Of a stretch of 30,673 nt of DNA, positions 2,218 to 30,290 are shown one piece after another; position 1 is the stretch's first letter; the number at the start of each line of letters is the position of its first letter. The stretch spans positions 1 to 30,673 of the forward strand of contig CAZPAN010000003.1 in assembly GCA_964584585.1 (NCBI GenBank), in the 5' to 3' direction. The position numbers and the translations under genes were made by a program. Origin of the DNA: an uncultured Coriobacteriaceae bacterium (lineage in GTDB: Bacteria; Actinomycetota; Coriobacteriia; Coriobacteriales; CADBOM01). The notes below the pieces were generated by a model, which searched no databases, was not told the DNA's origin, and saw nothing but the letters and a program-made list of their open reading frames with translations.

Positions 2218-3009
2218 TCAGCCCAGCTTGGCCTCCCTGCAAATCCGCACTATTTCCACAAATTTCAACGCATCGAGGGAAGCTCCTCCGACGAGTCCGC
2301 CGTCGATCTCCTCCATCTGGAGGAAGTGGGCGGCGTTCTCGGGCTTCATCGAGCCGCCGTAGAGAACCCTGATGGCCGCAGCTGCATCAGACCCCACCAT
2401 GTCGGCCACCACCGATCTGATCGAGGCTACGATCGAGGCCGCGCTCTCGGGTGTGGGTACCTTGCCGGTCCCGATGGCCCAGATGGGCTCGTAGGCGATC
2501 ACCGACTCAGAGCAGCTAGCAGGGCCGATGCCATCAAGCGCACGGCGGATCTGACCGCTGACGAACTCGACCGATTCGCCCCTGGCGTTGGTCGCCTCGC
2601 TCTCGCCGCAGCAGATGATCGGGACGATCCCATGGTCTATCAGAACCTTGGCCTTGAGATTGACCTTCTCGTCGGTCTCAGCATTGTCGGCCCGTCTCTC
2701 GGAGTGGCCGACGATGCAGTAAGCGCACCCGAGGTCGACCAGCATCGAAGCCGAGATCTCGCCGGTGCAGGCAGCGGAACCCTCGAACGCCTCCCAATGG
2801 ACATCCTGGGCGCCCACCTCGAAATGAGCCCTGTCAAACTCGCGTACGTTCGAGACGCCCTTTATCGATGTGAACGGCGGGCACAGCACGACCTCGACGT
2901 CATCAAGATCCGTCCCCGAGATCTGGTCGCCCACGATCTGGGCTGTCTTGACCGCACTCGCCCAAGTCATGTTCATCTTCCAGTTGCCAGCTATTATCGG
3001 CTTCCGCAA
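2218..3009 (-). CDS. tpiA: triosephosphate isomerase
   Basis: IAGNWKMN, IVGHSERR, AYEPIWAIGTG, LYGGS, LVGGASL. Start placed at TTG 3009 after GGAGGTG. Confidence 0.97.
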   Translation of the reverse strand: MRKPIIAGNWKMNMTWASAVKTAQIVGDQISGTDLDDVEVVLCPPFTSIKGVSNVREFDRAHFEVGAQDVHWEAFEGSAACTGEISASMLVDLGCAYCIVGHSERRADNAETDEKVNLKAKVLIDHGIVPIICCGESEATNARGESVEFVSGQIRRALDGIGPASCSESVIAYEPIWAIGTGKVPTPESAASIVASIRSVVADMVGSDAAAAIRVLYGGSMKPENAAHFLQMEEIDGGLVGGASLDALKFVEIVRICREAKLG

Positions 3010-3159
3010 TTCGGTCACCTCCAGATCCGCCATGCGGGGAGGAAGCACCATCCCCGCCGTTTCCTATCGCCACGCAGGAAAGCAGCCCGCAGAGTCCATC
3101 GCGCGCATCCGAACGCCCCGTTCCTCCAGCCGCCGACGATTGGGCCCCAAGAGGCTCCG

Positions 3160-5497: not shown

Positions 5498-6439
5498 TCA
5501 AGGTTCGGAGGAGCCGGCCGTCTTCTGCTCGAGATCCCTCGCGAGGGCTTCTATTCGTCTAATTCTATGATAAACAGCGGACTTGGACAGCGGTGGGTCA
5601 GCCAGCTCGCCAAGCTCCCTCAAAGAAACATCTGGATGCTCCAGTCTGAGAACCGCCAGGTCCTGGAGGGCTGGCGGGAGCGACTCGAGACCGCGCTTGT
5701 CGATCAGCGTCTTTATAGCACGTATCTGGCCCATCGCCGCGTCGATGGACTTGGTCTGATTGGCCATCTCAGCGTTAAGCCTTCGGTTGACGTCGTTTCG
5801 CACCGACTTGGTGACGCGCACGTTCTCCATCGCAAGAACTCCGCGATGCGCGCCGGTAACGGCTAGAACATCCGCGATTTGGTTCGCACCCTTCAGGTAG
5901 ATGATGTACGAACCGCGACGCCTGGTGGCCTTGGCCTGAATGTCGAAGGCGGCCATCAGCTCCACGAGACCGCGAGCCAGCTCCTCGTGATCCGTGGTGA
6001 GTTCGAAATGAAAATCCCCCCTGGGATCGGCGATGAACCCGCCACCGATGAACGCGCCCCGTAAGTAAGCCGCACGACAGCAGAGCTTCGCGAGCAACTC
6101 GTGCGGGATACCAAGCTCTAGTCCCGAGTCGGAGACGATGCCGAGATCGACCAAGGCGTCTCGCAGGCCGATCTGCGCAGGGACCGTGATCAGGTAGTTG
6201 TAAGACTTGTGCAGGGTGCTCCGCCTTGTGGTGATCTCGGTCTTAAGACCCTCCACATCGTGGATGAGAGAGACTATGAGACGGGCGACGGAGGCAGTCT
6301 CGGTAGTGAGCTCAAGCCTATAGTTCGCCGAGAGCCGACCCTCTATGCGCACCAACGCCGAAAGCTCAGCCTTCTTGCAGTCCTCGCATTCGAACTCCAC
6401 GCGGGACAGCTCGTCTCTCACCTCTCCTGCGAACGACAA
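5498..6439 (-). CDS. whiA: DNA-binding protein WhiA
   Basis: SFAGEVRDEL, AYLRGAFIGGG, NRRLNAEMAN, LSKSAVYHRIRR. Position after yvcK. Start placed at TTG 6439, overlapping the yvcK 3' end by 22 nt. Confidence 0.93.
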   Translation of the reverse strand: MSFAGEVRDELSRVEFECEDCKKAELSALVRIEGRLSANYRLELTTETASVARLIVSLIHDVEGLKTEITTRRSTLHKSYNYLITVPAQIGLRDALVDLGIVSDSGLELGIPHELLAKLCCRAAYLRGAFIGGGFIADPRGDFHFELTTDHEELARGLVELMAAFDIQAKATRRRGSYIIYLKGANQIADVLAVTGAHRGVLAMENVRVTKSVRNDVNRRLNAEMANQTKSIDAAMGQIRAIKTLIDKRGLESLPPALQDLAVLRLEHPDVSLRELGELADPPLSKSAVYHRIRRIEALARDLEQKTAGSSEP

Positions 6440-18523: not shown

Positions 18524-19447
18524 ATGATCAGGCTTAGCGACCTCATGTTCGAGAGAACGATTATCTCCTTCGAGGTATTCCCACCCAAGACCGACGAGGG
18601 CATGACCCAGCTCGACGACACCCTCGAGCACCTTGATGCGTTCTCGCCCGACTATATCTCCTGCACCTATGGAGCTGGTGGCGGCAACTCCACCAAGAAC
18701 CTCGAGATCGTCAAGAAGATCGCCGCCATGGACAGCAAGCCCATCCCAGTCACGCACTTCACCTGCATCGGACACACCAAGGAAACCGTCATCGAGCAGC
18801 TCCAGGCCTACCTCGACAACGGCATCAACCACATACTCGCTCTTCGCGGTGACCTGCCCTACGGCTGGACCGGCACCAACGGCGACTTCGAGTACGCCAC
18901 CGACCTCGTCGCCTTCATCAGACAGAACTTCGGCGACAAGTTCGAGATCGCGGTCTCCGGCTCCCCCGAGGGCCACATCGCCTGCCGCAGCCTCGAAGCC
19001 GACATCGCCCACCTCAAGCAGAAGCAGGACGAGGGCGCCGACTTCATCATGACCCAGCTCACCTATGACATGGAACAGTTCAGGTACTGGCTCGACGCCA
19101 TCCGCTGCGCAGGCATCACAATGCCTGTCGACGTAGGGATCATGCCGGTGCTCATCAAGGACTCGGTCATAAACATGTGCCTCTCCCGCAACGGCTGTGC
19201 CATCCCACGCAAGCTCGCAGAGGTCTTCTCGCATCACTGGTTCGACGTCGACCCCGACGGCAATGAGCTGCCCGAGGTCAAGAAGGCGTTTCGCGAGGAA
19301 GGGATGGAGTACACGGTCGATCAGATCCTCGAATACATGGCGATCGGGGTCGACGGCCTGCATCTATACTGTCTGAACAAGTGGGAGGATATCTCCGAGA
19401 TCATCGACAGGGCCGGCATCGCCCGCAAGAACTGGAAGCAGGACTAG
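18524..19447 (+). CDS. metF: methylenetetrahydrofolate reductase
   Basis: SFEVFPPK, ISCTYGAGG, HFTC, ILALRGD, PEGH, KQDEGADFIMTQL, GLHLYCLNK. Confidence 0.93.
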   Translation: MIRLSDLMFERTIISFEVFPPKTDEGMTQLDDTLEHLDAFSPDYISCTYGAGGGNSTKNLEIVKKIAAMDSKPIPVTHFTCIGHTKETVIEQLQAYLDNGINHILALRGDLPYGWTGTNGDFEYATDLVAFIRQNFGDKFEIAVSGSPEGHIACRSLEADIAHLKQKQDEGADFIMTQLTYDMEQFRYWLDAIRCAGITMPVDVGIMPVLIKDSVINMCLSRNGCAIPRKLAEVFSHHWFDVDPDGNELPEVKKAFREEGMEYTVDQILEYMAIGVDGLHLYCLNKWEDISEIIDRAGIARKNWKQD

Positions 19448-19544: not shown

Positions 19545-21158
19545 TCAGGTATCGGGTTGGGAGCTTTGCTCCTCTACCTGGGTCTCTTCTGGCACAGATA
19601 GCTTCCCTTTGGAGTCGGCTATCAGCATCTTCACCAGACTCACGCACATCAGCAGCATGATGAAGATGAACGGGAAAGAGATCACTATCGTCATGGTCTG
19701 GACCATACTCACACCACCGGAGAGTATGAGTGCGAACGCCATCGCGGCAATCGCCACACCCCAGAAGACCTTCTTGCCGTTCGGCGGATCGAGATTGCCC
19801 TCGCTGGTGGTCATCGAGAGCACGTACGTGGCGGAGTCAGCCGACGTGATGAAGAAGAGGAAGAGCAGCACCATAGCAATAGCCGACATCACGACGCCAA
19901 GCGGATAGGACGCGAACACCGAATAGATGGCGGTTTCGGAGACGGCTGCGATGGATGCGGCCGTCTCGAGGTCCAGACCCTGTGCGAAATCGATGGCGAG
20001 GGTGCCGTTTATGGCGAACCACAGGCAGGAGAACAGGGTCGGGGCGATCATCGCGACTGCCACGAACTGCCGGATCGTGCGGCCACGCGAAACCCTCGCA
20101 AGGAAGAGTCCCACGAAGGGCGACCACGAGAGCCACCACGCCCAATAGAAAACCCTCCAGGCCTGAATCCAGCTGGAGTCTCCATCCACGCTTCTCCTGA
20201 CGCTGTCCTGAATGAAATTGGTGAGGTAATCCCCTATGCCCACGAACAGGTTATAAATGATCTCTACCTGCGATCCAACCAGGAACGCCACCACCATCAA
20301 AGCCGAGCATAGTATGACGTTGATGTCAGACAGCTTCTTCATTCCCTTCGCGACTCCGCTTACGGAACTCAGGGTGTAGACCGCACAGACTACGGCCATC
20401 ATCACCAGCCAGACCGGCCAGTTGGACTCTATCCCGAACAGGTATTCCAGACCGCCGCTGAGCTGTAGGCATCCCATACCGAAGGACGCCGTCACTCCGA
20501 CCGCAGTCAGGATCACTACGTAGATATTGATAATCTTGCCTAAGATGCCGGTCGCCACCTTGCCGATAATAGGCTCTAAAGTGTAGTTGAGCAGGGCCGG
20601 CTTCTTCCTGCGGAACTGGAAATATCCGAGTGCGATGGCGACCACCGCGTAACACGCCCATGGATGCAGGCCCCAGTGCATGATGGACGTGCGTATCGAG
20701 AAGCGCTGCGCCTCGTCGCTCATAGCCTCGATGCCACCAATCGGGCTTACGAAATGCGAGAGGGGTTCGGCAACTCCCCAGAAGACGAGACCTACACCCA
20801 TGCCGGAGGCGAAGAGCATCGCGAACCAGCTGACCGTCGAGAATGCAGGTTTATCGTCATCGGCACCGAGCTTGATCCGACCTAATTTCGATATCGCAAG
20901 CACGATGCTGAAGAACACGAAAAAAGTAACTCCGTAGAGGAACAACCAGTCGAAATTGGCACTCATCCAGCTCAGCGCCGAATTGGCCGCGATGGAGAGA
21001 GTGTCTCCAGAGAGAATCCCCCAGGCGGCCATCGCGACCGAGAAGATCGCGGCGACGGTGAACACCGGGTTTGCCAGCGTCTGCCGAATCCTATCGCCTA
21101 GCGATCCGCGTTTGTCCGGATCTCCTTCAGAAGAGCCACCATTACGATTCTGCATCAT
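19545..21158 (-). CDS. BCCT (betaine/carnitine/choline) transporter
   Basis: About 12 hydrophobic segments. SWFAMLFASGMGVGLVFWGVAEP, HWGLHPWACY, WRVFYWAWWLSWSPFVGLFLARVSRGRTIRQF, FFITSADS. Confidence 0.95.
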   Translation of the reverse strand: MMQNRNGGSSEGDPDKRGSLGDRIRQTLANPVFTVAAIFSVAMAAWGILSGDTLSIAANSALSWMSANFDWLFLYGVTFFVFFSIVLAISKLGRIKLGADDDKPAFSTVSWFAMLFASGMGVGLVFWGVAEPLSHFVSPIGGIEAMSDEAQRFSIRTSIMHWGLHPWACYAVVAIALGYFQFRRKKPALLNYTLEPIIGKVATGILGKIINIYVVILTAVGVTASFGMGCLQLSGGLEYLFGIESNWPVWLVMMAVVCAVYTLSSVSGVAKGMKKLSDINVILCSALMVVAFLVGSQVEIIYNLFVGIGDYLTNFIQDSVRRSVDGDSSWIQAWRVFYWAWWLSWSPFVGLFLARVSRGRTIRQFVAVAMIAPTLFSCLWFAINGTLAIDFAQGLDLETAASIAAVSETAIYSVFASYPLGVVMSAIAMVLLFLFFITSADSATYVLSMTTSEGNLDPPNGKKVFWGVAIAAMAFALILSGGVSMVQTMTIVISFPFIFIMLLMCVSLVKMLIADSKGKLSVPEETQVEEQSSQPDT

Positions 21159-21250: not shown

Positions 21251-21273
21251 CTAAGTTAGCAGTGCTAACTTAG
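21251..21273. promoter_or_regulatory. perfect 23-bp palindrome, candidate TetR operator upstream of BCCT
   Basis: CTAAGTTAGCA-G-TGCTAACTTAG in an AT-rich stretch about 95 bp upstream of the BCCT start; overlaps a TGn-TAACTT extended -10 candidate. Confidence 0.8.
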
Positions 21274-21400
21274 AAAGAATGAAAAATTGGGGATAATCCC
21301 TCTAATCTGAAGCGTTTAAGCTATCGTTGAGCCTCTGTGCAAATGAGCTGTAGGGATTGCGTAGTGCGGTAGACCTCACGAAGATCAGGGTGCGAAGAGA

Positions 21401-23176
21401 TTATCCAATATCCCCCAGAATCGTCCTTGTCGCGGTCTCGAGCGAGTCGATCAGCCCCTGCGCGGCGGCTTCGGTCTCGGCTCTGGCGAACAGGTATCCC
21501 TTGATCTTGGGCTCGGTGCCGCTCGGGCGGATTATGAGCTTTCCGTCGCCCTCCATCGCGAATTCGACGACATCGGCGGCCGGAAGCCTCTGCGCTTCAT
21601 CGCTCCCGTTGACCCTCGGCATGATCACACAATCGGAGTAGTCCACGAATGACACGACGTCCATCCCGGCTATATTCGAAGGCGGGTCGGATCTGAGGCC
21701 ATCCATGATCTGCGACATCCGGGCAACCCCTTCGGCCCCGGGGTAGGACACGTTTATCGTGCGGTTGAGATAGAACCCGTAACGGGCGTGGAGATCGGCA
21801 AGAGCGTCGATCAGATCACGCCCATGCGACTTGTGCCATCTAGCCATCTGGCAGATTATCATGCTCGCGTTGACAGCGTCCTTGTCGCGGACGTGCCCTC
21901 CGCTCATGTATCCGTAGCTCTCCTCGAAACCGAAGATGAACCGGTCGGCCTCGCCGGCGATCTCGAGTCCGAGAATCTGCTCGCCGATGTACTTGAAGCC
22001 GGTGAGCGTGCGCCTCAGCTCGAAGCCGCGCTCCGCAGCCATCGCATCGACCATCGCGGTCGAGACGATAGTCGTCACCGCCACGTCGCGCGACAGATCC
22101 TCCCCGCGCATCGTGCGCATCTCGCATATATAGTCGAGCATCAGCGCACCCATCTCGTTGCCGGAGATCAGGCGATACTCGCCGTCGTGCAGCACCGCCG
22201 CTCCAACACGGTCGGCGTCAGGATCGGTGGCGAGCAGGATGTCAGGACGCTCGGTCTCGCAAAGCGCGAGTCCTCGCTCGAGCGCCTCACGAAACTCCGG
22301 GTTCGGATAGGGGCAAGTGGGGAAGTTTCCATCGGGCTTGGCCTGCTCCGGCACCAAGGCGACATCGGCAATCCCGATGCGGCGCAGGACCTCCACGACG
22401 CATTCGAGACCTACGCCGTTCAGCGGCGTGTAGACGACGGAGAGGTCGGCATCTGCCGGATCGCTCTCCACGGACTGGGCGACCACCGCGTCGATGAAGC
22501 GCTTGAGTGTATCCTCGCCTATCCACTCGATCAGCCCAGAGGCCATCGCCTCGTCGAAATCCATGCAGCGAACTCCGTCGAAGATGTCTACCTTCGAGAT
22601 CGCTCGCGAGATGGCCGTGGCGGCTTCGGACGTGATCTGGCAGCCATCCGGGCCATACGCCTTGTAGCCGTTGTATGCAGCGGGGTTGTGGCTGGCGGTG
22701 ATGTTGATGCCAGCCGAGCAGCGCAGGTCGCGCACCGCGAACGAGAGCGCGGGGGTCGGTTCGACGCGCGGGTAGACGAACGAACGGATCCCGTTGGCTG
22801 CAAGCACGCCGGCGGTGACCCTCACGAATTCCTCGCCCATGTTGCGGCTATCGCGACAGATCGCGACCGTGGGAGCGGGGCGGTCGCCGACCGCCTTGGC
22901 GCACAGCTCGGCATCTGCCGGATCGACCGGACGTTCCGAGTTGAGGTAATCCGCCAGCCCCTGGGTTGCGCGGCCGACCGTATGGATGTTCATCCGATTC
23001 GAACCGGCGCCGATGACGCCCCGAAGCCCGGCGGTGCCGAACTCGAGGTCCTGGAAGAACGCGTCGGCCATCGCCGAATCGTCTCCCTCCATCTCCGAAA
23101 GCTCCTCTTTCAGCGAGTCATCCGCGTTGTCGGCCCAAAGGGCATGCTGGGATTCGATCTCCTCTGCGCTCCTCAT
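21401..23176 (-). CDS. pgm: phosphoglucomutase/phosphomannomutase (alpha-D-phosphohexomutase)
   Basis: LEFGTAGLRG, ITASHNP (phospho-Ser), ATDPDADR, GFEESYG, IRPSGTEPKIK. Start 23176 (GGAG RBS) or 23191. Confidence 0.93.
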   Translation of the reverse strand: MRSAEEIESQHALWADNADDSLKEELSEMEGDDSAMADAFFQDLEFGTAGLRGVIGAGSNRMNIHTVGRATQGLADYLNSERPVDPADAELCAKAVGDRPAPTVAICRDSRNMGEEFVRVTAGVLAANGIRSFVYPRVEPTPALSFAVRDLRCSAGINITASHNPAAYNGYKAYGPDGCQITSEAATAISRAISKVDIFDGVRCMDFDEAMASGLIEWIGEDTLKRFIDAVVAQSVESDPADADLSVVYTPLNGVGLECVVEVLRRIGIADVALVPEQAKPDGNFPTCPYPNPEFREALERGLALCETERPDILLATDPDADRVGAAVLHDGEYRLISGNEMGALMLDYICEMRTMRGEDLSRDVAVTTIVSTAMVDAMAAERGFELRRTLTGFKYIGEQILGLEIAGEADRFIFGFEESYGYMSGGHVRDKDAVNASMIICQMARWHKSHGRDLIDALADLHARYGFYLNRTINVSYPGAEGVARMSQIMDGLRSDPPSNIAGMDVVSFVDYSDCVIMPRVNGSDEAQRLPAADVVEFAMEGDGKLIIRPSGTEPKIKGYLFARAETEAAAQGLIDSLETATRTILGDIG

Positions 23177-23209
23177 TTCAAACCGCTCCATTCGACGACA
23201 GGGAACATG

Positions 23210-24481
23210 CTACGGCTCCACAGGGGAGCAATTGGGATAGATCTCATCGAACTCCGCCTTGTACATGTTCTGCCCGCCGGATCGGGACTCAACCAGAGGC
23301 TCGGTGATGTAATCCTGATGATCTATCGGGTTGGAGTACTCAAGGCTGCGCTCCCACGACTCCTTAATTACCGTGATCCTCATGTAGCAGTCGTAATAGC
23401 AGGTGAGGATATCGTAGAAGGTATCGTTGTTCACGCTGTTGGAATGCGGGGTCAGCCCGTTGAGGTACTCGTAGGCCTCGCTGAGTTCGTCTGCAAGACT
23501 AGAGGCGGTGCTGGCATAGGATTCCCTGGTTGAGAAACTCTCTTTCGTGTAGTTGTTGTTAAAATCGGTCGCCGCTGCCGCTATGCGCGCGTCGTAATTC
23601 TCGAGCTGGCTGTAGTACTCGTCGAGTATCTCGTAGAACTCCTCCTCAGAACCATAGGCCCTCTTGCTGCCGCTGTAATAGGAGTAGCCGTAGCCGTATG
23701 GAACGGAGGAGGTCGATTCGGAATCGGTTCCCGAATCCTGAGATTGGCTGGTTTCGGAAGACTGGCCCAGAATGGAGATGCTATCCGGAAAATAGGTCGG
23801 GATGACCCAGAGCACCGCGATGAGGGCCAGCGCCACGACTACAGCCGCGATCACGCCGATCGTCACGTAGAAGGACGTCTGGCGTTTCTTCTTCTTTTCC
23901 TGAACAACGCTGTACGGCTGGCCGGCTATGGTCTGATTGGCGTCGTAAACCCGCTGCTGGTACTGGTACGCGTTGCCGTACGGAAGCTGGCCCTGAGCAT
24001 AGGGCTGCTGGCCGGCCATGTTCATCTGAACGGTCTGATTGGGAGGATACTGGACAGTGCCGGGCTGGATCGGAGCACTAAATTGCTGGCCAGAACCATG
24101 CAGACTCTGGGTCTCGAACTGCTGCGTAACGCCAGGCTGAGTCGAAAATCCGAACTGCTGCGTGACATCGCCCGAGCCGGGGAAGGATCGGCTGAAGTCG
24201 GCCTGGGTCGGCGCGGCTCCGACGGGTGCAGTCCCGATAGCGTCAAGACCTGACATGTCGGGAGTGTAAGCTCCGCCGGAGCTGCCAGCCGTCGTCGTGG
24301 CATCGGCAGCTGCGGCAGGATAGCTCGCTCCGTCGGATCCGGTCGTCTTGCCGTCGTCCGCCCGTCCGACTCCAGCAGGCCCTTCGGGATGATCGACCTG
24401 GTACCCGCAGTTGGTGCAGAACTGCAAGCTCTGCTTGAGCTCCTGACCGCAATAGACGCAGTAGACCTTCTCGCCGCTCAT
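23210..24481 (-). CDS. zinc-ribbon-domain single-pass membrane protein of unknown function
   Basis: N-terminal CVYC-x10-CTNC, Gln/Gly/Pro-rich linker, KKKKR followed by a TM helix, acidic Tyr-rich C-terminal domain. ATG 24481 after GGAGGGG. Confidence 0.8.
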   Translation of the reverse strand: MSGEKVYCVYCGQELKQSLQFCTNCGYQVDHPEGPAGVGRADDGKTTGSDGASYPAAAADATTTAGSSGGAYTPDMSGLDAIGTAPVGAAPTQADFSRSFPGSGDVTQQFGFSTQPGVTQQFETQSLHGSGQQFSAPIQPGTVQYPPNQTVQMNMAGQQPYAQGQLPYGNAYQYQQRVYDANQTIAGQPYSVVQEKKKKRQTSFYVTIGVIAAVVVALALIAVLWVIPTYFPDSISILGQSSETSQSQDSGTDSESTSSVPYGYGYSYYSGSKRAYGSEEEFYEILDEYYSQLENYDARIAAAATDFNNNYTKESFSTRESYASTASSLADELSEAYEYLNGLTPHSNSVNNDTFYDILTCYYDCYMRITVIKESWERSLEYSNPIDHQDYITEPLVESRSGGQNMYKAEFDEIYPNCSPVEP

Positions 24482-24530
24482 TTCCCCTCCCGTCAAAACG
24501 CATGGACGAAAGCAATCAATCAGCGTTTCC

Positions 24531-26420
24531 CTAGAACTCCTGAGCGGTTGGAGTGGCCCTGACCTCCAGCGGGGCGTCGCCGGCCGCAGACGAGGTGGTC
24601 ACCGTGTAGGTTAACGTGATGGTCTCGCCGGGCTGCAGGTGGGTGTCAGCGAACACCACTTCGATACCGTTGTAGCTGCCCTCCTGCAGCACGATGTCGT
24701 CACGGCCCGTCGCGACGACATCGTCAACAGAGCCACCGGCCGGAGCGTAGAGATGGAACCTCAGAAGCTCGTCCGCCCTGCTGAGAGCCGCCTCGTTCCA
24801 CGCGCGCACGTACTCGGGGATGCTGCTCTCCATGCTCGGGTCGAGGGTGTTGGTCATCTTCACGTTCATCTGATAAGTGGACGTCCCGTCGGAATTCACC
24901 GTCTGCTCGCCCACGGTCACCTCTAGATCGAGGTACCAATCGAGCTTCGACCAGCTGTAGTTGCTAACGTACACGCCGGTCTCGGCGACCGTCGTGTCGG
25001 TGGAGATGGCACCGGAGAAGTCGAGTTCCTCGATCAGGGCTTGCTCCTCCTCGTCAGCCATCCAGACGAAGAAGCGGTAATCGTCGACACCCTCCGCCCA
25101 TGCGGTGAGCATCGGAACCAGAGTGGAGGATCCGATGCCGTTCATGATGACGTCGAATGCCTGGGATGCAACATCCGCGAACACTTCGTCCTGCGTGTCG
25201 CCGTCCGAATAGAGCCAATAGATATCGCTCATCAGGTACTGCGCGGTGTTGGAGCCGTCCAGGTAGGTCCCATCGGAAGCGGTCACGCCGCCCATGATGG
25301 AAAGAAAGCTCTGCAGCAAAACCGGATCTAGGGCGAACACGCCGTCGATCGTGCCGCCGTACAGGGTTGTCCAAAACTGCGAGATCCTGCTCGCGGTACG
25401 TGGGAAATCGGGGTTGTAGAGAGAGTCGCCGGCCGTGACCGTCATCGCCTCGCCGCTAAACTCGCCGCCTTGGAACAGATAGTACTCCTCGTCGGTGATG
25501 GACACCGATTGAGAGCTATCCACCCACATCACCGAGCTGAATTCTCCGAGCGAGATGACGCCGTCGGTTATGGTGACAAGCCCCTGCGCTCCTGCGAATC
25601 CGCCGCCAGCGCGGATCTCCGCGTTGTTCATCGCGACCACAAGATAGTTCCTGGTCTGCCCATCCGCGCCCAGCATCTCGGGGAGCACCGACGCCAGCTC
25701 ACTGGTCGTCTCCGCGAAATCCGCGACCGTCCCCATTCCGCTCTTCGCGATATCTATAACCGAGGCGAGCTGATCGATATGCACCTCTCCGATGCTCTGA
25801 ATCGACTCGTTAGCGGATTCGATGATCGGAGCGGCCTCCACCAGACCGTCCGCGAGAAGGGTCAGGCTATCGACATCTATCCGGCCGTCGGCGTACAGCG
25901 TGTCGAGGGAGATGCTGCCGATTACGTCGGACATCGGGGCCAGGGCCTCCGATGCAAGGTCGTCAATCGCTATGACGAGGGTCCTCGCCGCAGAAATGTC
26001 CTCGCCCAGAACAGGGATGAAACCGCCCAGAATCCAGAGCGGACCGCTGACTTCATTCCGCATCGCCGAAGTCTGCTCCGCAAGCACGTTTATATCCGAC
26101 GCCAGACCCTCGCTGTCGCCGTTCGAGATCTTTTCCTGTATCCCCTGCGCGGTGACCATGGCCGTGCGGGCCTCGTCCATCACGGCCATCGCGGAGCGGT
26201 AGAGCAGAAAGCCGCTTATTCCCAGAATCACCACAAGCGCGACCACGACCGAGACCACAGTGATGATGATCTTCTTGCGCCTGTCGCGTCTTCTGCGCCT
26301 TCTGCGTTTTCTACGCTCGGGCGAATGGCCGGCATGCTTGCCTCGTCTGGAATGCGCACCCACGTTGTCGATGAAAAGATCTGCGGTGATCGACTCGTCC
26401 TGGATGTGTCGTGCTGACAT
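24531..26420 (-). CDS. DUF4012 domain membrane-anchored protein
   Basis: Poly-Arg N-terminus, one TM helix, helical stalk, and YLVVAMNNAEIRAGGGFAG ...PDFP... SKLDWYL typical of DUF4012. ATG 26420 after GGGAG. Confidence 0.8.
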   Translation of the reverse strand: MSARHIQDESITADLFIDNVGAHSRRGKHAGHSPERRKRRRRRRRDRRKKIIITVVSVVVALVVILGISGFLLYRSAMAVMDEARTAMVTAQGIQEKISNGDSEGLASDINVLAEQTSAMRNEVSGPLWILGGFIPVLGEDISAARTLVIAIDDLASEALAPMSDVIGSISLDTLYADGRIDVDSLTLLADGLVEAAPIIESANESIQSIGEVHIDQLASVIDIAKSGMGTVADFAETTSELASVLPEMLGADGQTRNYLVVAMNNAEIRAGGGFAGAQGLVTITDGVISLGEFSSVMWVDSSQSVSITDEEYYLFQGGEFSGEAMTVTAGDSLYNPDFPRTASRISQFWTTLYGGTIDGVFALDPVLLQSFLSIMGGVTASDGTYLDGSNTAQYLMSDIYWLYSDGDTQDEVFADVASQAFDVIMNGIGSSTLVPMLTAWAEGVDDYRFFVWMADEEEQALIEELDFSGAISTDTTVAETGVYVSNYSWSKLDWYLDLEVTVGEQTVNSDGTSTYQMNVKMTNTLDPSMESSIPEYVRAWNEAALSRADELLRFHLYAPAGGSVDDVVATGRDDIVLQEGSYNGIEVVFADTHLQPGETITLTYTVTTSSAAGDAPLEVRATPTAQEF

Positions 26421-26508
26421 ATCGTTAGCTCCCATCGGGAATTGCTAGGGATCAAAATGCCAAAGAACTTTCACAGTTTACAATAAGCGCCAACCCTATC
26501 AAACGAGG

Positions 26509-26574
26509 GTCTAGCGTTTCATGTCGGGGCCCTGGGCGCCCGTCTAGCGTTTCACGTCGGTGTCCTGGGTGTCC
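26509..26574. repeat. 33-bp tandem repeat, 2 copies
   Basis: GTCTAGCGTTTCATGTCGGGGCCCTGGGCGCCC / GTCTAGCGTTTCACGTCGGTGTCCTGGGTGTCC, 28/33 identical, no spacer. Confidence 0.85.
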
Positions 26575-26794
26575 ATCTCCACCTCGTATACGTCGACATC
26601 GATTCCGAGAACCGCGTCCGACGCCTCCAAGCTGTCCATCTGGCCTGGAGCTTCTCGTCGACGACCTCGCGCATCCATCTTAAGGGATATGCCGATCAGT
26701 TCATTCCGCCCGCCTCCGGCGCAGGAGTATCAGGCGACGCGGCAGCGGAATCGCAGGCCTTAGGCGGCGATTCTCCAAACCTTTTCAAATAGTA

Positions 26795-26824
26795 TTGCTT
26801 TTAAAGTTAGCAAAGCTAACATAT
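26795..26824 (+). promoter_or_regulatory. tetR promoter with overlapping operator dyad
   Basis: TTGCTT-N16-TAACAT with AAGTTAGC-AAA-GCTAAC (26804-26820) across the spacer and -10. Confidence 0.72.
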
Positions 26825-26891
26825 GTCTCATCGGATCAGAAGCGCTAACACAACGTCGTGGCGACATCGATTTCATGAGAGGGGGAGTCTC

Positions 26892-27683
26892 ATGGAAAAC
26901 TCGAAACGCAAGTACATCGAGGCCACGTACGAGCTTCTTCGCGACGAGGGCCTCGAGAGCGCGACCATCCGCAACGTCGCCAAACGGGTTGGATGCAGCA
27001 ATCCCGCCATCTACCGGCATTTTCGTGATCTGGACGAATTGATCTCCATCGCATCGCTGCGCTTTTTGCACGACTATTCCGAGGATGCCCGCACATTGTC
27101 CCAGGTCGATCTCAATCCCCTGGAGCTGAACCTCCAGCTGTGGGAGTGCCTTGCCTACTACTCGTTCGAGTACGCACCGATCATGAAGAGGTTCTTCTTC
27201 CCGAAGAACCCCGAGACCTCTTTTCACAAGGCGGACGTCGAGGAGTACTATCGCTGCTTTCCCGAGGACATCGTCGACTTCAAGTCCTTCATGCTCGACA
27301 TGTTCCAGAACTGGGATCTCCGCAAGCGCAACTCGATTCTTCTGCATCGGGCCGTCGAGAACGGGATGCTCGATGCCGACGTCGCGGATCGTCTCATCGA
27401 CATCGATATCCTTCTGTTCAGGGGCATGCTCGCCTCCCTCGAGAACACATACCGAGACAAGAACGCCGCCCGTGCGGCCGCGCGGCGCTTCATGCAGCTC
27501 ATCGTCGAGGACTACCAGCTGCGCCTCAAGCCCGGGTTCTCGATTCTGGTCGTCACCCCCGAAAGCCCTTCTCTGCGCATCGACAAGATCGTCGACGGTG
27601 CCAGCGAATACAGAGTCGTTCCCAATCATCCCGACTCTGCACAAAACGATGACAACGCATCCCAAGAGAAAGGAAGTGTATGA
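26892..27683 (+). CDS. TetR/AcrR-family transcriptional regulator
   Basis: YIEATYELLRDEGLESATIRNVAKRVGCSNPAIYRHFRDLDEL HTH. ATG 26892 after GGGGGAG. Confidence 0.93.
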   Translation: MENSKRKYIEATYELLRDEGLESATIRNVAKRVGCSNPAIYRHFRDLDELISIASLRFLHDYSEDARTLSQVDLNPLELNLQLWECLAYYSFEYAPIMKRFFFPKNPETSFHKADVEEYYRCFPEDIVDFKSFMLDMFQNWDLRKRNSILLHRAVENGMLDADVADRLIDIDILLFRGMLASLENTYRDKNAARAAARRFMQLIVEDYQLRLKPGFSILVVTPESPSLRIDKIVDGASEYRVVPNHPDSAQNDDNASQEKGSV

Positions 27684-27897: not shown

Positions 27898-29346
27898 ATG
27901 ATTCCTTTGATCAACGTATTGACCGAGACCCAGGAGAAGCGAATCCACGACGAGGTCGTCCGCATACTCTCGGAAGTCGGCGTGAGCTTCGAGTACGAGC
28001 CTGCGATCGAGCTCTTCAAGAATCATGGTTTCGAAGTGGACGGGACCATCGTGAAGTTCACCGAGGACCAGATCCTGAAGGCCCTCGACAGCGCTCCTGC
28101 TAGCTTCCCGATGCAGGCTCGCAACCCGGAGCACACCGTGACCTGCGAGAACGGCAGCTTCATCCTGACCCCCTCCTACGGACCGGCATTCGTCTACGAC
28201 GGCCTGACCGGCACACGCAGGGGAACCACCTATGACGACTACAAGAACGTCATCAAGCTCGTGCATATGAGCGAGAACATCAACTCATCTGGCGGCAACG
28301 TGGTCGAGCCATGCGATGTACCCGACGAGATCCGCCACCTGATCATGACCGACGCCCATATCAAGCTCGCCGACAAGACCTTCATGGGCTCGGCGCGTGG
28401 GTACGATAACGCCAAGGACATCTGCGAGATCGCAGCGATCATGTTCGGCGGGCGCGAGGCCATCGAGAAGACTCCGGTGCTCAACACCCTCATCAACTCG
28501 ATCACCCCGCTCATGTTCGACGAGCGTATGACGGGCGCCCTCATCGCCAACGCCGAGTACGGGCAGTCGTGCATGGTGTCGTCCCTGGTTATGAGCGGGT
28601 CCACAGGCCCGGTGACGATGGTCGAGACGCTGGCGATCCAGATCGCCGAGTGCCTCGCGGGAATCGTCCTCACCCAGCTCGTCAAGCCGGGTGCGCCGGT
28701 GATCATGGGTTCGACGTCCGGCCCGTCGGACATGGTGAGCATGGCTCTGACGATCGGCACCGCCGAGACCGCCCTCTACACCGCCGCGACCGCCCAGATG
28801 GGTCGCTTCTACAACATCCCCACGAGGGGCGGCGGAGGCCTCAACGACGGCATCCTCGCCGATGCTCAGGCCGGCTACGAGTCGATGCTGACGCTGATGG
28901 CCGCCGGCGCCTCCGGGATCTCCTACGTCCTGCATGCCGCTGGAATCATGCACTACTACAACGCCTTCAGCTACGATCAGTTCGTGATCGACGATGAGAT
29001 CGCCGGCCTGGTGAAGAAGTTCGTCGCAGGATACGACTTCACCGAGGACCGCTTCGTCTTCGACGACGTTGCGGAGGTCGGCCATGGCGGACACTTCCTC
29101 TATCAGGACAGCACGCTGGAGTTCATGCACGATCTTCGCCGCCCGTTCATCTCGACCCGCGCAGGTTGGGAGGGTTGGAGCGATGCCGGCGAGATGAGCG
29201 TCGCCCAGGTCGCCCGCAAACGCTGGACCACCCAGCTGGAAGAGTACGAGTGCCCCGAGATCGATCCGGCGATGGCCGAGGAAGTCAACGCCTACATCTC
29301 GAAGCGCTGCAACGAACTGATCGGAGAGGAGCCCGAGCTGCTGTAG
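27898..29346 (+). CDS. trimethylamine methyltransferase (MttB) superfamily protein, non-pyrrolysine, MtgB-like
   Basis: IHDEVVRILSEVGV, APASFPMQARNPE, PSYGPAFV, INSITPLMFD, LTQLVKPGAPVIMG, GTAETAL, IPTRGGGGLND, DAQAGYES, LHAAG. No in-frame TAG. RBS AAGGAGG. Confidence 0.92.
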   Translation: MIPLINVLTETQEKRIHDEVVRILSEVGVSFEYEPAIELFKNHGFEVDGTIVKFTEDQILKALDSAPASFPMQARNPEHTVTCENGSFILTPSYGPAFVYDGLTGTRRGTTYDDYKNVIKLVHMSENINSSGGNVVEPCDVPDEIRHLIMTDAHIKLADKTFMGSARGYDNAKDICEIAAIMFGGREAIEKTPVLNTLINSITPLMFDERMTGALIANAEYGQSCMVSSLVMSGSTGPVTMVETLAIQIAECLAGIVLTQLVKPGAPVIMGSTSGPSDMVSMALTIGTAETALYTAATAQMGRFYNIPTRGGGGLNDGILADAQAGYESMLTLMAAGASGISYVLHAAGIMHYYNAFSYDQFVIDDEIAGLVKKFVAGYDFTEDRFVFDDVAEVGHGGHFLYQDSTLEFMHDLRRPFISTRAGWEGWSDAGEMSVAQVARKRWTTQLEEYECPEIDPAMAEEVNAYISKRCNELIGEEPELL

Positions 29347-29399: not shown

Positions 29400-29445
29400 G
29401 CAGAAAGACGGCGCGGATCCAAATCGGGTCCGCGCCGTTTTCTGC
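29400..29445. terminator. hairpin terminator after the MttB gene
   Basis: GCAGAAAGACGGCGCGGATCC-AAATC-GGGTCCGCGCCGTTTTCTGC. Confidence 0.75.
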
Positions 29446-29522: not shown

Positions 29523-30290
29523 TCAGTCTCCGTCTGAAACCCTGGAGAGAAACGCCCTGGTCTCGGGCTGCTGGGGGTGCTCGATGAGCTGGGTGGCGGT
29601 GCCCTCCTCCACTATCGTGCCATTTGCCATGAAGACGATGCGATCGGCGACATCGCGGGCGAAGGCCATCTCATGGGTGACGATCACCATCGTCATGTGC
29701 TCCTCGGCCAGATCGCGGATGACCTTCAGGACCTCGCGCGTGAGCAGGGGGTCCAAAGCGCTGGTGGGCTCGTCGAAGAACAGGACCTGAGGGTTCATGC
29801 ACAGCGCTCGGGCTATCGCGACGCGTTGCTGCTGGCCGCCGGAGAGCTCGCAGGGGACCATGTCGTCCTTTCCCTCCAGGCCCATCTTCTCGAGGAGCTC
29901 GCGGGCCTGCGCGACGGCATCGTCCTCGGTGCGCCTCTGCACGCGCATCGGAGCGTCGATGATGTTTCTCATGACCGTATAGTGGGGGAAGAGGTTGAAG
30001 TTCTGGAACACCAGCCCGAACCTGGAGCGAGCCTTGGCCCTTATCCGACCATTTCCGTAGACGGCCCTGCCCGATTCGTCGTTCTCGGCGACCACCAGAT
30101 CCTCGTACACGAGCTTTCCACTCTCGAAGGTCTCGAGGAGGGTCGCGCAGCGCAGGAGGGTCGACTTGCCACCTCCAGAGGCACCGATAATGCCCACCAC
30201 CTCGCCCTTGTCAACAGAAAGCGAGATGTCTTTCAGGACCTCGGTATCCCCGAAACTCTTATGCACATGCTCGATGCTCATGACAGGCAT
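29523..30290 (-). CDS. polar amino-acid ABC transporter ATP-binding protein (GlnQ family)
   Basis: GASGGGKST Walker A, VFQNFNLFPH, LSGGQQQRVAIARAL, LFFDEPTSALDP, VTHEM. Confidence 0.95.
   Translation of the reverse strand: MPVMSIEHVHKSFGDTEVLKDISLSVDKGEVVGIIGASGGGKSTLLRCATLLETFESGKLVYEDLVVAENDESGRAVYGNGRIRAKARSRFGLVFQNFNLFPHYTVMRNIIDAPMRVQRRTEDDAVAQARELLEKMGLEGKDDMVPCELSGGQQQRVAIARALCMNPQVLFFDEPTSALDPLLTREVLKVIRDLAEEHMTMVIVTHEMAFARDVADRIVFMANGTIVEEGTATQLIEHPQQPETRAFLSRVSDGD

Follow-up and report, generated by a model that had tools for sequence, protein, structure and literature searches.

A candidate TetR-operator regulon joining a BCCT transporter and an MttB-family methyltransferase in an uncultured Coriobacteriaceae bacterium

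In E. coli, BetI is a choline-responsive repressor of the TetR family, acting in the divergent promoter region between betT, which encodes a BCCT transporter, and the betIBA genes for betaine synthesis. The operators of the TetR and QacR families are typically 15-bp palindromes with 6-bp half-sites. Here we describe a locus of an uncultured Coriobacteriaceae bacterium in which a palindromic dyad of this size is found upstream of a BCCT gene and again upstream of a tetR-mttB gene pair. The stretch of DNA that we analyzed comprises the first 30,673 nucleotides of contig CAZPAN010000003.1 (assembly GCA_964584585.1) and is called the window throughout.

In the gut, quaternary-amine methyltransferases of the MttB family remove betaine-type compounds, and no trimethylamine is released (PMC8604678; PMC13080624); the way in which genes of this family are switched on is barely known. 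In Desulfitobacterium hafniense, a corrinoid protein, MtgA, and a RamA homolog are encoded near the glycine betaine methyltransferase MtgB (PMC13080624). In Eubacterium limosum, several MttB enzymes (MtyB, MtcB, MtpB) share MtqC and MtqA; the neighboring regulator is a RocR/FIS-type homolog, and the transporter is an MFS protein (PMC8604678). No article found in our literature search links a TetR-family regulator to MtgB.

We propose that in the window one TetR-family protein and two operators constitute a transporter-methyltransferase regulon, a reading that is strongly supported by comparison with related loci and to which we assign a probability of about 0.75. In this proposal, the presumed repressor is the TetR-family protein whose gene occupies 26892-27683 on the plus strand; as a dimer it would bind both dyads as its operators. 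When no inducer is available, the repressor would occupy site 2, in or beside the tetR promoter, and site 1, in front of the BCCT gene 5.5 kb away, keeping both tetR-mttB and the BCCT gene off. A quaternary amine entering the cell would then bind the C-terminal domain of the repressor and take it off both sites, and the transporter and the substrate-specific methyltransferase would increase together. The inducer would most likely be glycine betaine, a close analog, or its product. TetR binding, the sign of regulation, and the effector are what we infer here from sequence comparisons.

Operator dyads in the window and in related Coriobacteriia

Both dyad copies are intergenic, and neither is assigned to a strand. 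Site 1, CTAAGTTAGCAGTGCTAACTTAG (21251..21273), reads as a perfect palindrome over all 23 bp, its 10-bp arms enclosing a 3-nt center, with the core GTTAGCAGTGCTAAC at 21255-21269; its end is 93 bp and its center 104 bp upstream of the BCCT start codon (ATG at 21158, minus strand). Site 2, TAAAGTTAGCAAAGCTAACATAT (26802..26824), has the core GTTAGCAAAGCTAAC at 26806-26820, with its end 68 bp and its center 79 bp upstream of the tetR ATG (26892). An initial annotation of this DNA had reported the two sequences at these positions, the perfect symmetry of site 1, and a 17-nt core, AAGTTAGCA-NN-GCTAAC, in which the sites agree at 15/17 positions. All of this was confirmed, and over the whole 23-mers the agreement is 17/23.

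The same annotation, working by eye, had seen the full dyad GTTAGC-N3-GCTAAC nowhere else in the window, and our scan indeed found exactly two matches, sites 1 and 2. Allowing up to two mismatches added a single unrelated match (0.30 expected), and none of 100 shuffles reached three. The genome-wide scan that it had proposed extends this uniqueness to the assembly of the window's genome (1.63 Mb in 213 contigs, 61% GC, 80% complete), where sites 1 and 2 are the sole exact copies against a Markov-1 expectation of 0.012 (P(>=2) ~7e-5). The dyads are far beyond chance, and site 1 is the best motif match in the genome; copies with one mismatch occur elsewhere at C74:2008 and C10:407. The lone hexamer GCTAAC is present 11 times in the window where 5.5 copies are expected, and this half-site is not significant by itself.

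We compared the window with 13 related loci carrying TetR orthologs, which came from a search of 60 relatives (genomes G001, G031, G030, G011, and G006), a scan of one genome per species (six further loci), and a protein collection (two more). The closest, G001, belongs to a sister species of the same genus; its TetR is 77% and its MttB 85% identical to those of the window, and TetR identity in the other 12 loci is roughly 50-55%. Dyads of one family (GTTAnC-N3-GnTAAC or close variants) are found upstream of the BCCT-preceding tetR in 13/13 loci, within one mismatch of GTTAnC-N3-GnTAAC in 11 of them, so that the motif is conserved upstream of orthologs as the initial annotation would have it. 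The G001 tetR is preceded by two operators, A and B, 24 bp apart (GTTAGCGCTGTTAAC and GTTAGCAGTGCTAAC). Operator B has the same 15-nt core as site 1, and site 2 and operator A share one identical context, TATTGCTTTTAAAGTTAGC. The window tetR also retains a decayed second operator, ATCAGAAGCGCTAAC (26835..26849, no strand), which aligns to operator B with a 5-nt insertion; its right half-site GCTAAC is intact (26844-26849), and its left half keeps 3/6 positions. This decay accounts for the extra half-site GCTAACA noticed earlier at 26844, which is indeed present (26844-26850) and which occurs at chance frequency when taken alone.

The dyads of the more distant loci vary around the same plan. 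Those upstream of tetR are ATTATCAsTGATAAC (O1) and GTTATCACTGyTAAC (O2) in the Eggerthellaceae-type loci, GTAATCAnTGATTAC in two copies in G031, GTTATCACTGATTAC in G030, and GTTAACAGTGATAAC and GTTATCGGTGTTAAC in locus L150, and the half-sites in G011 and G006 are GTGAAC, GTTAAC, and GTGAGC. Most loci share an architecture in which O1 is followed by a T-run, a -35-like TTGC(A/G), 17 nt, and a -10-like hexamer (TATGTT, TATATT, or TACAGT), with O2 either overlapping this hexamer or coming after it. Where the loci are of the Eggerthellaceae type, the distance from the operator center to the downstream tetR ATG is 55-59 bp for O2 and 113-116 bp for O1. Within the half-site, G1, T2, A4, and C6 are nearly constant, position 1 being A in most O1 left half-sites, and positions 3 and 5 covary with the recognition helix of TetR. 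The helix/half-site pairs are GCSNPAIY with GTTAGC, GCSSAALY with GTTATC, GCSNSVIY with GTGAAC, and GCTSGAIY with GTAATC.

As a negative control, 764 kb of metagenomic sequence around unrelated BCCT genes (80 loci) contained no GTTANC-N3-GNTAAC. Metagenomic relatives of the window's BCCT, none of which exceeds 55% identity and none of which has a dyad, served as negative control only. G002, a congener devoid of tetR, BCCT, and mttB, has no relaxed dyad.

Further features were observed at these loci. In G001 (locus L048, contig C73), operator B is part of a perfect 29-bp palindrome, AAGCATTGTTAGCAGTGCTAACAATGCTT (6148-6176), and the spacer between the BCCT-A gene and mttB (2890-3020) holds a short tandem array of AAGCAACT-like octamers. 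Several relatives (L059, L061, L062) encode two tandem tetR paralogs of the subfamily, with O1 and O2 only at the copy directly before BCCT-A; the upstream copy of L062 is preceded by a different palindrome, AATTATCATGATAATA.

A split operon, its promoters, and the alternatives

In all 13 related loci, tetR, BCCT, and mttB lie on one strand, and the TetR orthologs always adjoin BCCT-mttB. A tree divides the BCCT genes adjoining these tetR genes into two well-supported clades. The copy that separates tetR from mttB belongs to clade A; the window has no such copy. Clade B is a second copy, which follows mttB in G001 and L056 and in L055 and L059 is divergent from tetR over a 375-bp region containing O1 and O2. 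The window BCCT (19545-21158, minus strand; PF02028, 557.5 bits) falls in clade B, as the sister (95/93) of BCCT-B in the G001 operon tetR-BCCT(A)-mttB-BCCT(B), and it shares only 35% identity with the other BCCT of this genome, which is encoded on contig C6. The proposed link between transporter and methyltransferase is borne out by this phylogeny and by the gene order of the relatives. It had been presented as one that gene order alone would miss, which is correct for this genome, but the gene order of the relatives does connect tetR, BCCT, and mttB.

The core gene order in G001 and G002 consists of a phosphoglucomutase-type enzyme (PGM), a zinc-ribbon protein (Znr), a DUF4012 protein, an ABC ATPase, and the next gene, all on one strand. 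In the window these are PGM (21401-23191), Znr (23210-24496), DUF4012 (24531-26435), and the ABC ATPase (29523-30290), all on the minus strand; the inserted tetR-mttB pair separates DUF4012 from the ABC gene, and BCCT-B lies on the far side of PGM, where synteny with the congeners stops. From these positions, the accessory betaine genes flank a 5.2-kb core block, an arrangement other than the mere interruption of an old cluster. A single or simple inversion was rejected as the origin of the split, the orientation of PGM-Znr-DUF4012-ABC being unchanged relative to G001 and G002. The ancestral unit may have been a single operon, tetR-BCCT(A)-mttB(-BCCT(B)), from which this genome would have lost BCCT-A and parted BCCT-B from the remainder, with BCCT-B retaining or regaining a copy of the promoter-operator module. 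We read the window as a probable broken-up operon, both pieces of which appear to carry an operator.

A candidate tetR promoter, TTGCTT-N16-TAACAT (26795..26822, plus strand), has the same hexamers and spacing in G001; site 2 occupies its spacer and provides the -10 element. Thirty nucleotides around site 1 align with this module (ATTCTT-N16-TAACTT vs TTGCTT-N16-TAACAT), which suggests that the site 1 region is a diverged copy of the tetR promoter-operator unit. The initial annotation had stated that both sites overlap -10-like hexamers. TAACAT and TAACTT do fit TANNNT, yet no sigma-70 consensus promoter was found, and the overlap is weakly borne out; the promoter positions at both sites are what we infer from these hexamers.

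Several points weigh against a shared regulon. The sigma-70 consensus scan returned no promoter at either site. As RNA, site 1 folds into a hairpin of -13.6 kcal/mol (z-score -4.0) downstream of the PGM gene. None of the relatives separates BCCT-B from tetR as the window does, and site 1 has no orthologous counterpart among them. Finally, more copies of the dyad could exist in the part of the genome that lies outside the 80%-complete assembly. What speaks for site 1 is its identity with G001 operator B and its genome-wide uniqueness.

Part of these observations would also suit a different explanation, in which only site 2 works as a TetR operator and the BCCT gene is not co-regulated, site 1 being either a relic promoter-operator copy carried along with BCCT-B or mainly a weak RNA hairpin or terminator after PGM. 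The PGM gene, read on the same strand, stops 128 nt before site 1, a U-rich stretch follows the hairpin, the scan detected no promoter beside the site, and a search for orthologous BCCT-B genes that stand alone and carry a dyad of their own yielded none. A relic should decay, however, as the second tetR operator did, yet site 1 is still a perfect 23-bp palindrome. As a terminator it is a weak candidate that we rejected, since the T-run after the hairpin is poor and the terminator scan does not call it. We regard this explanation as improbable.

A regulon under the adjoining TetR has also to be set against the idea that both dyads are real protein-binding sites for some other regulator. The genome does encode other helix-turn-helix (HTH) regulators, and the evidence that ties protein to DNA is indirect. 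We nevertheless judge it very unlikely, because the dyad family stands upstream of every orthologous tetR (13 loci, several families) and covaries with the recognition helix, because the dyad is absent from G002, which has no tetR, and because a 15-bp palindrome with 6-bp half-sites is of the size usual for a TetR operator. A functionless coincidence is scarcely credible: the relaxed 10-position pattern does occur 0-6 times per relative genome, about as often as its reversed control, and its matches at C74:2008, C211:97, and G001:C5 look like background, but the exact 12-position dyad was seen twice where 0.012 copies are expected per genome, with both copies in the promoter regions of genes that the relatives keep in a single operon and with a base-for-base match to the G001 operators.

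The three relaxed matches were rejected as regulon members; C211:97 has GC-rich flanks, and the G001:C5 match is within a 1515-aa open reading frame (ORF). The match at C74:2008-2022 (locus L011), GTTAGCGATGGTAAC, is intergenic with AT-rich flanks and fits the relaxed motif, a pattern found at background frequency. It lies 171 bp upstream of a gene for a Spy0128/pilin-like surface protein and ~360 bp upstream of a GntR-DUF1648 pair.

The regulator, the methyltransferase, and their surroundings

The TetR-family regulator has 263 amino acids and an N-terminal HTH domain (PF00440, residues 9-51, 38.6 bits vs a cut-off of 24). Its AlphaFold2 model (pLDDT 90.1, pTM 0.85) shows the TetR helices and a C-terminal beta-hairpin. 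Foldseek returned 63 PDB matches at E <= 0.001, and the best 50 of these 63 are all TetR-family proteins (FadR, TtgR, AmtR, EilR, and others), with TM-scores of up to ~0.70 when normalized by the target and ~0.5 at best when normalized by the query. Sequence matches to the PDB cover the HTH only, leaving the ligand domain without a close solved relative. We rejected an identification as BetI (TIGR03384, 30.7 bits vs 201.3; NF001978, 29.5 vs 118), the match being limited to residues 5-70.

This protein belongs to a subfamily of >110 sequence clusters, nearly all of them metagenome proteins, with an invariant core PLELNLQLWE, many conserved aromatic residues, and the signature DLNPLELNLQLWEC; a literature search found no paper on it. 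Residues 212-244 form a conserved C-terminal extension (L-x-PG[YF]SILVV ... Y), modeled as the beta-hairpin, that is unusual for TetR-family proteins. It is about an even question whether the regulator represents an uncharacterized TetR subfamily that serves corrinoid-dependent betaine demethylation in gut Coriobacteriia as its dedicated sensor and responds to glycine betaine or a near analog through the fixed O1/O2 promoter design. If true, this would be the first non-pyrrolysine MttB system with a defined transcriptional switch, and the window would add a natural case of a broken operon whose operator keeps the pieces in one regulon.

The mttB gene (27898-29346, plus strand) encodes a member of the non-pyrrolysine MttB superfamily that resembles MtgB (PF06253, 459.9 bits). 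It is an uninterrupted ORF of 482 amino acids without an in-frame amber codon, and it scores 321 bits with the pyrrolysine-type trimethylamine profile TIGR02369, below the cut-off of 525. Its best PDB matches are 9yce and 2qne, both glycine betaine methyltransferase MtgB of D. hafniense, over the full length (E 1e-147). The residues of MtgB that bind glycine betaine are Y97, R312, H348, and F356 (PMC13080624). Aligned to 9yce, the window enzyme keeps the first three and has Y, still aromatic, in place of F356. This pattern would be compatible with glycine betaine, and also with proline betaine or another small betaine. For an MtgB-like enzyme that keeps three of the four binding residues, glycine betaine or a near analog would be the likely substrate, and also the likely inducer of the system.

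The BCCT protein is presumed to import a quaternary amine. It exceeds the cut-off of TIGR00842 (468.9 bits vs 407.55) and stays below that of the betaine-specific equivalog betaine_BCCT (NF047988, 565 bits vs 650), and its substrate is therefore not assigned by profile.

Neither a cognate corrinoid protein nor a methyl-corrinoid:tetrahydrofolate (THF) methyltransferase is encoded in the window, and the clusters of the relatives also have neither. B12-binding (corrinoid) proteins are found on contigs C6, C27, and C125, and a pterin-binding methyltransferase (MT2) on C6; no dyad with up to two mismatches occurs on these contigs or at the second MttB cluster of C6. The corrinoid protein, the methyl-corrinoid:THF methyltransferase, and the activase would be encoded there, without the dyad, and the regulon seems limited to the substrate-specific parts. 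The two MttB paralogs on C6 are ~25% identical to the window MttB.

The C6 cluster (L010:5576-13999) is a second complete system, comprising a BCCT, a corrinoid protein, the two MttB, a possible activase of the hydantoinase/oxoprolinase type, and the pterin-binding methyltransferase. It has no dyad and no adjoining TetR.

In the remainder of the window, a methylenetetrahydrofolate reductase (MTHFR) gene (18524-19447, plus strand; PF02219, 231 bits) is convergent with the BCCT gene and has no dyad upstream; the enzyme fits methyl-THF oxidation downstream of betaine demethylation. The 214-bp spacer between tetR and mttB showed no significant structure. Downstream of mttB, a hairpin followed by a T-run (29400-29445, plus strand; minimum free energy -37.9 kcal/mol, z-score -8.2) is likely the terminator closing the tetR-mttB unit. 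Between DUF4012 and tetR, positions 26509-26574 hold two tandem copies of a 33-bp unit that are 85% identical. An Rfam scan at the gathering threshold found no riboswitch or other RNA family in the whole window. The public sequencing runs that contain the locus are DNA runs of a bird metagenome only.

Comparison with known systems

In kind, this is a classical and fairly ordinary TetR-operator system, with no new mechanism. The novelty lies in the uncharacterized TetR subfamily, with a motif and a promoter design found across the family, and in the broken-operon layout. The locus offers a concrete candidate repressor-operator pair, with the motif GTTAnC-N3-GnTAAC and a conserved promoter design, as well as a way to predict transporter-methyltransferase pairing in Coriobacteriia and a candidate ligand-responsive part for a betaine biosensor. 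It would also be a clean example of regulon membership outlasting the break-up of an operon.

As in the E. coli bet system, a TetR-family regulator appears to join a BCCT gene to genes of quaternary-amine metabolism via palindromic operators, and the divergent arrangement of L055 and L059, with clade B BCCT and tetR on either side of a dyad-bearing region, corresponds to the bet layout. In contrast to that system, the window TetR is not an ortholog of BetI, which it matches in the HTH only; the place of choline oxidation is taken by an anaerobic pathway in which an MttB-family enzyme carries out corrinoid-dependent demethylation; and the two targets are 5.5 kb apart, with three unrelated genes between them.

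With TetR/tetO and QacR-type pairs, the window system shares the N-terminal HTH (PF00440), an all-helical ligand domain, and palindromic operators of 15 bp that stand, usually in pairs, at the promoter of the regulator gene itself. It differs from them in the length of the protein, the beta-hairpin extension at its C-terminus, the subfamily signature, and a ligand domain that has no close solved counterpart.

The window MttB aligns end to end with MtgB of D. hafniense (DSY3156; PDB 2qne, 9yce) and likewise has no pyrrolysine codon, but unlike MtgB it has no adjoining partner genes, the candidates being on other contigs. The locus follows the same logic as in E. limosum, where a substrate-specific MttB-family gene also lies beside transporter and regulator genes, and the corrinoid protein and the THF methyltransferase are encoded elsewhere. 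The window, however, has a TetR and a BCCT in the places that are taken in E. limosum by the RocR/FIS-type regulator and the MFS transporter.

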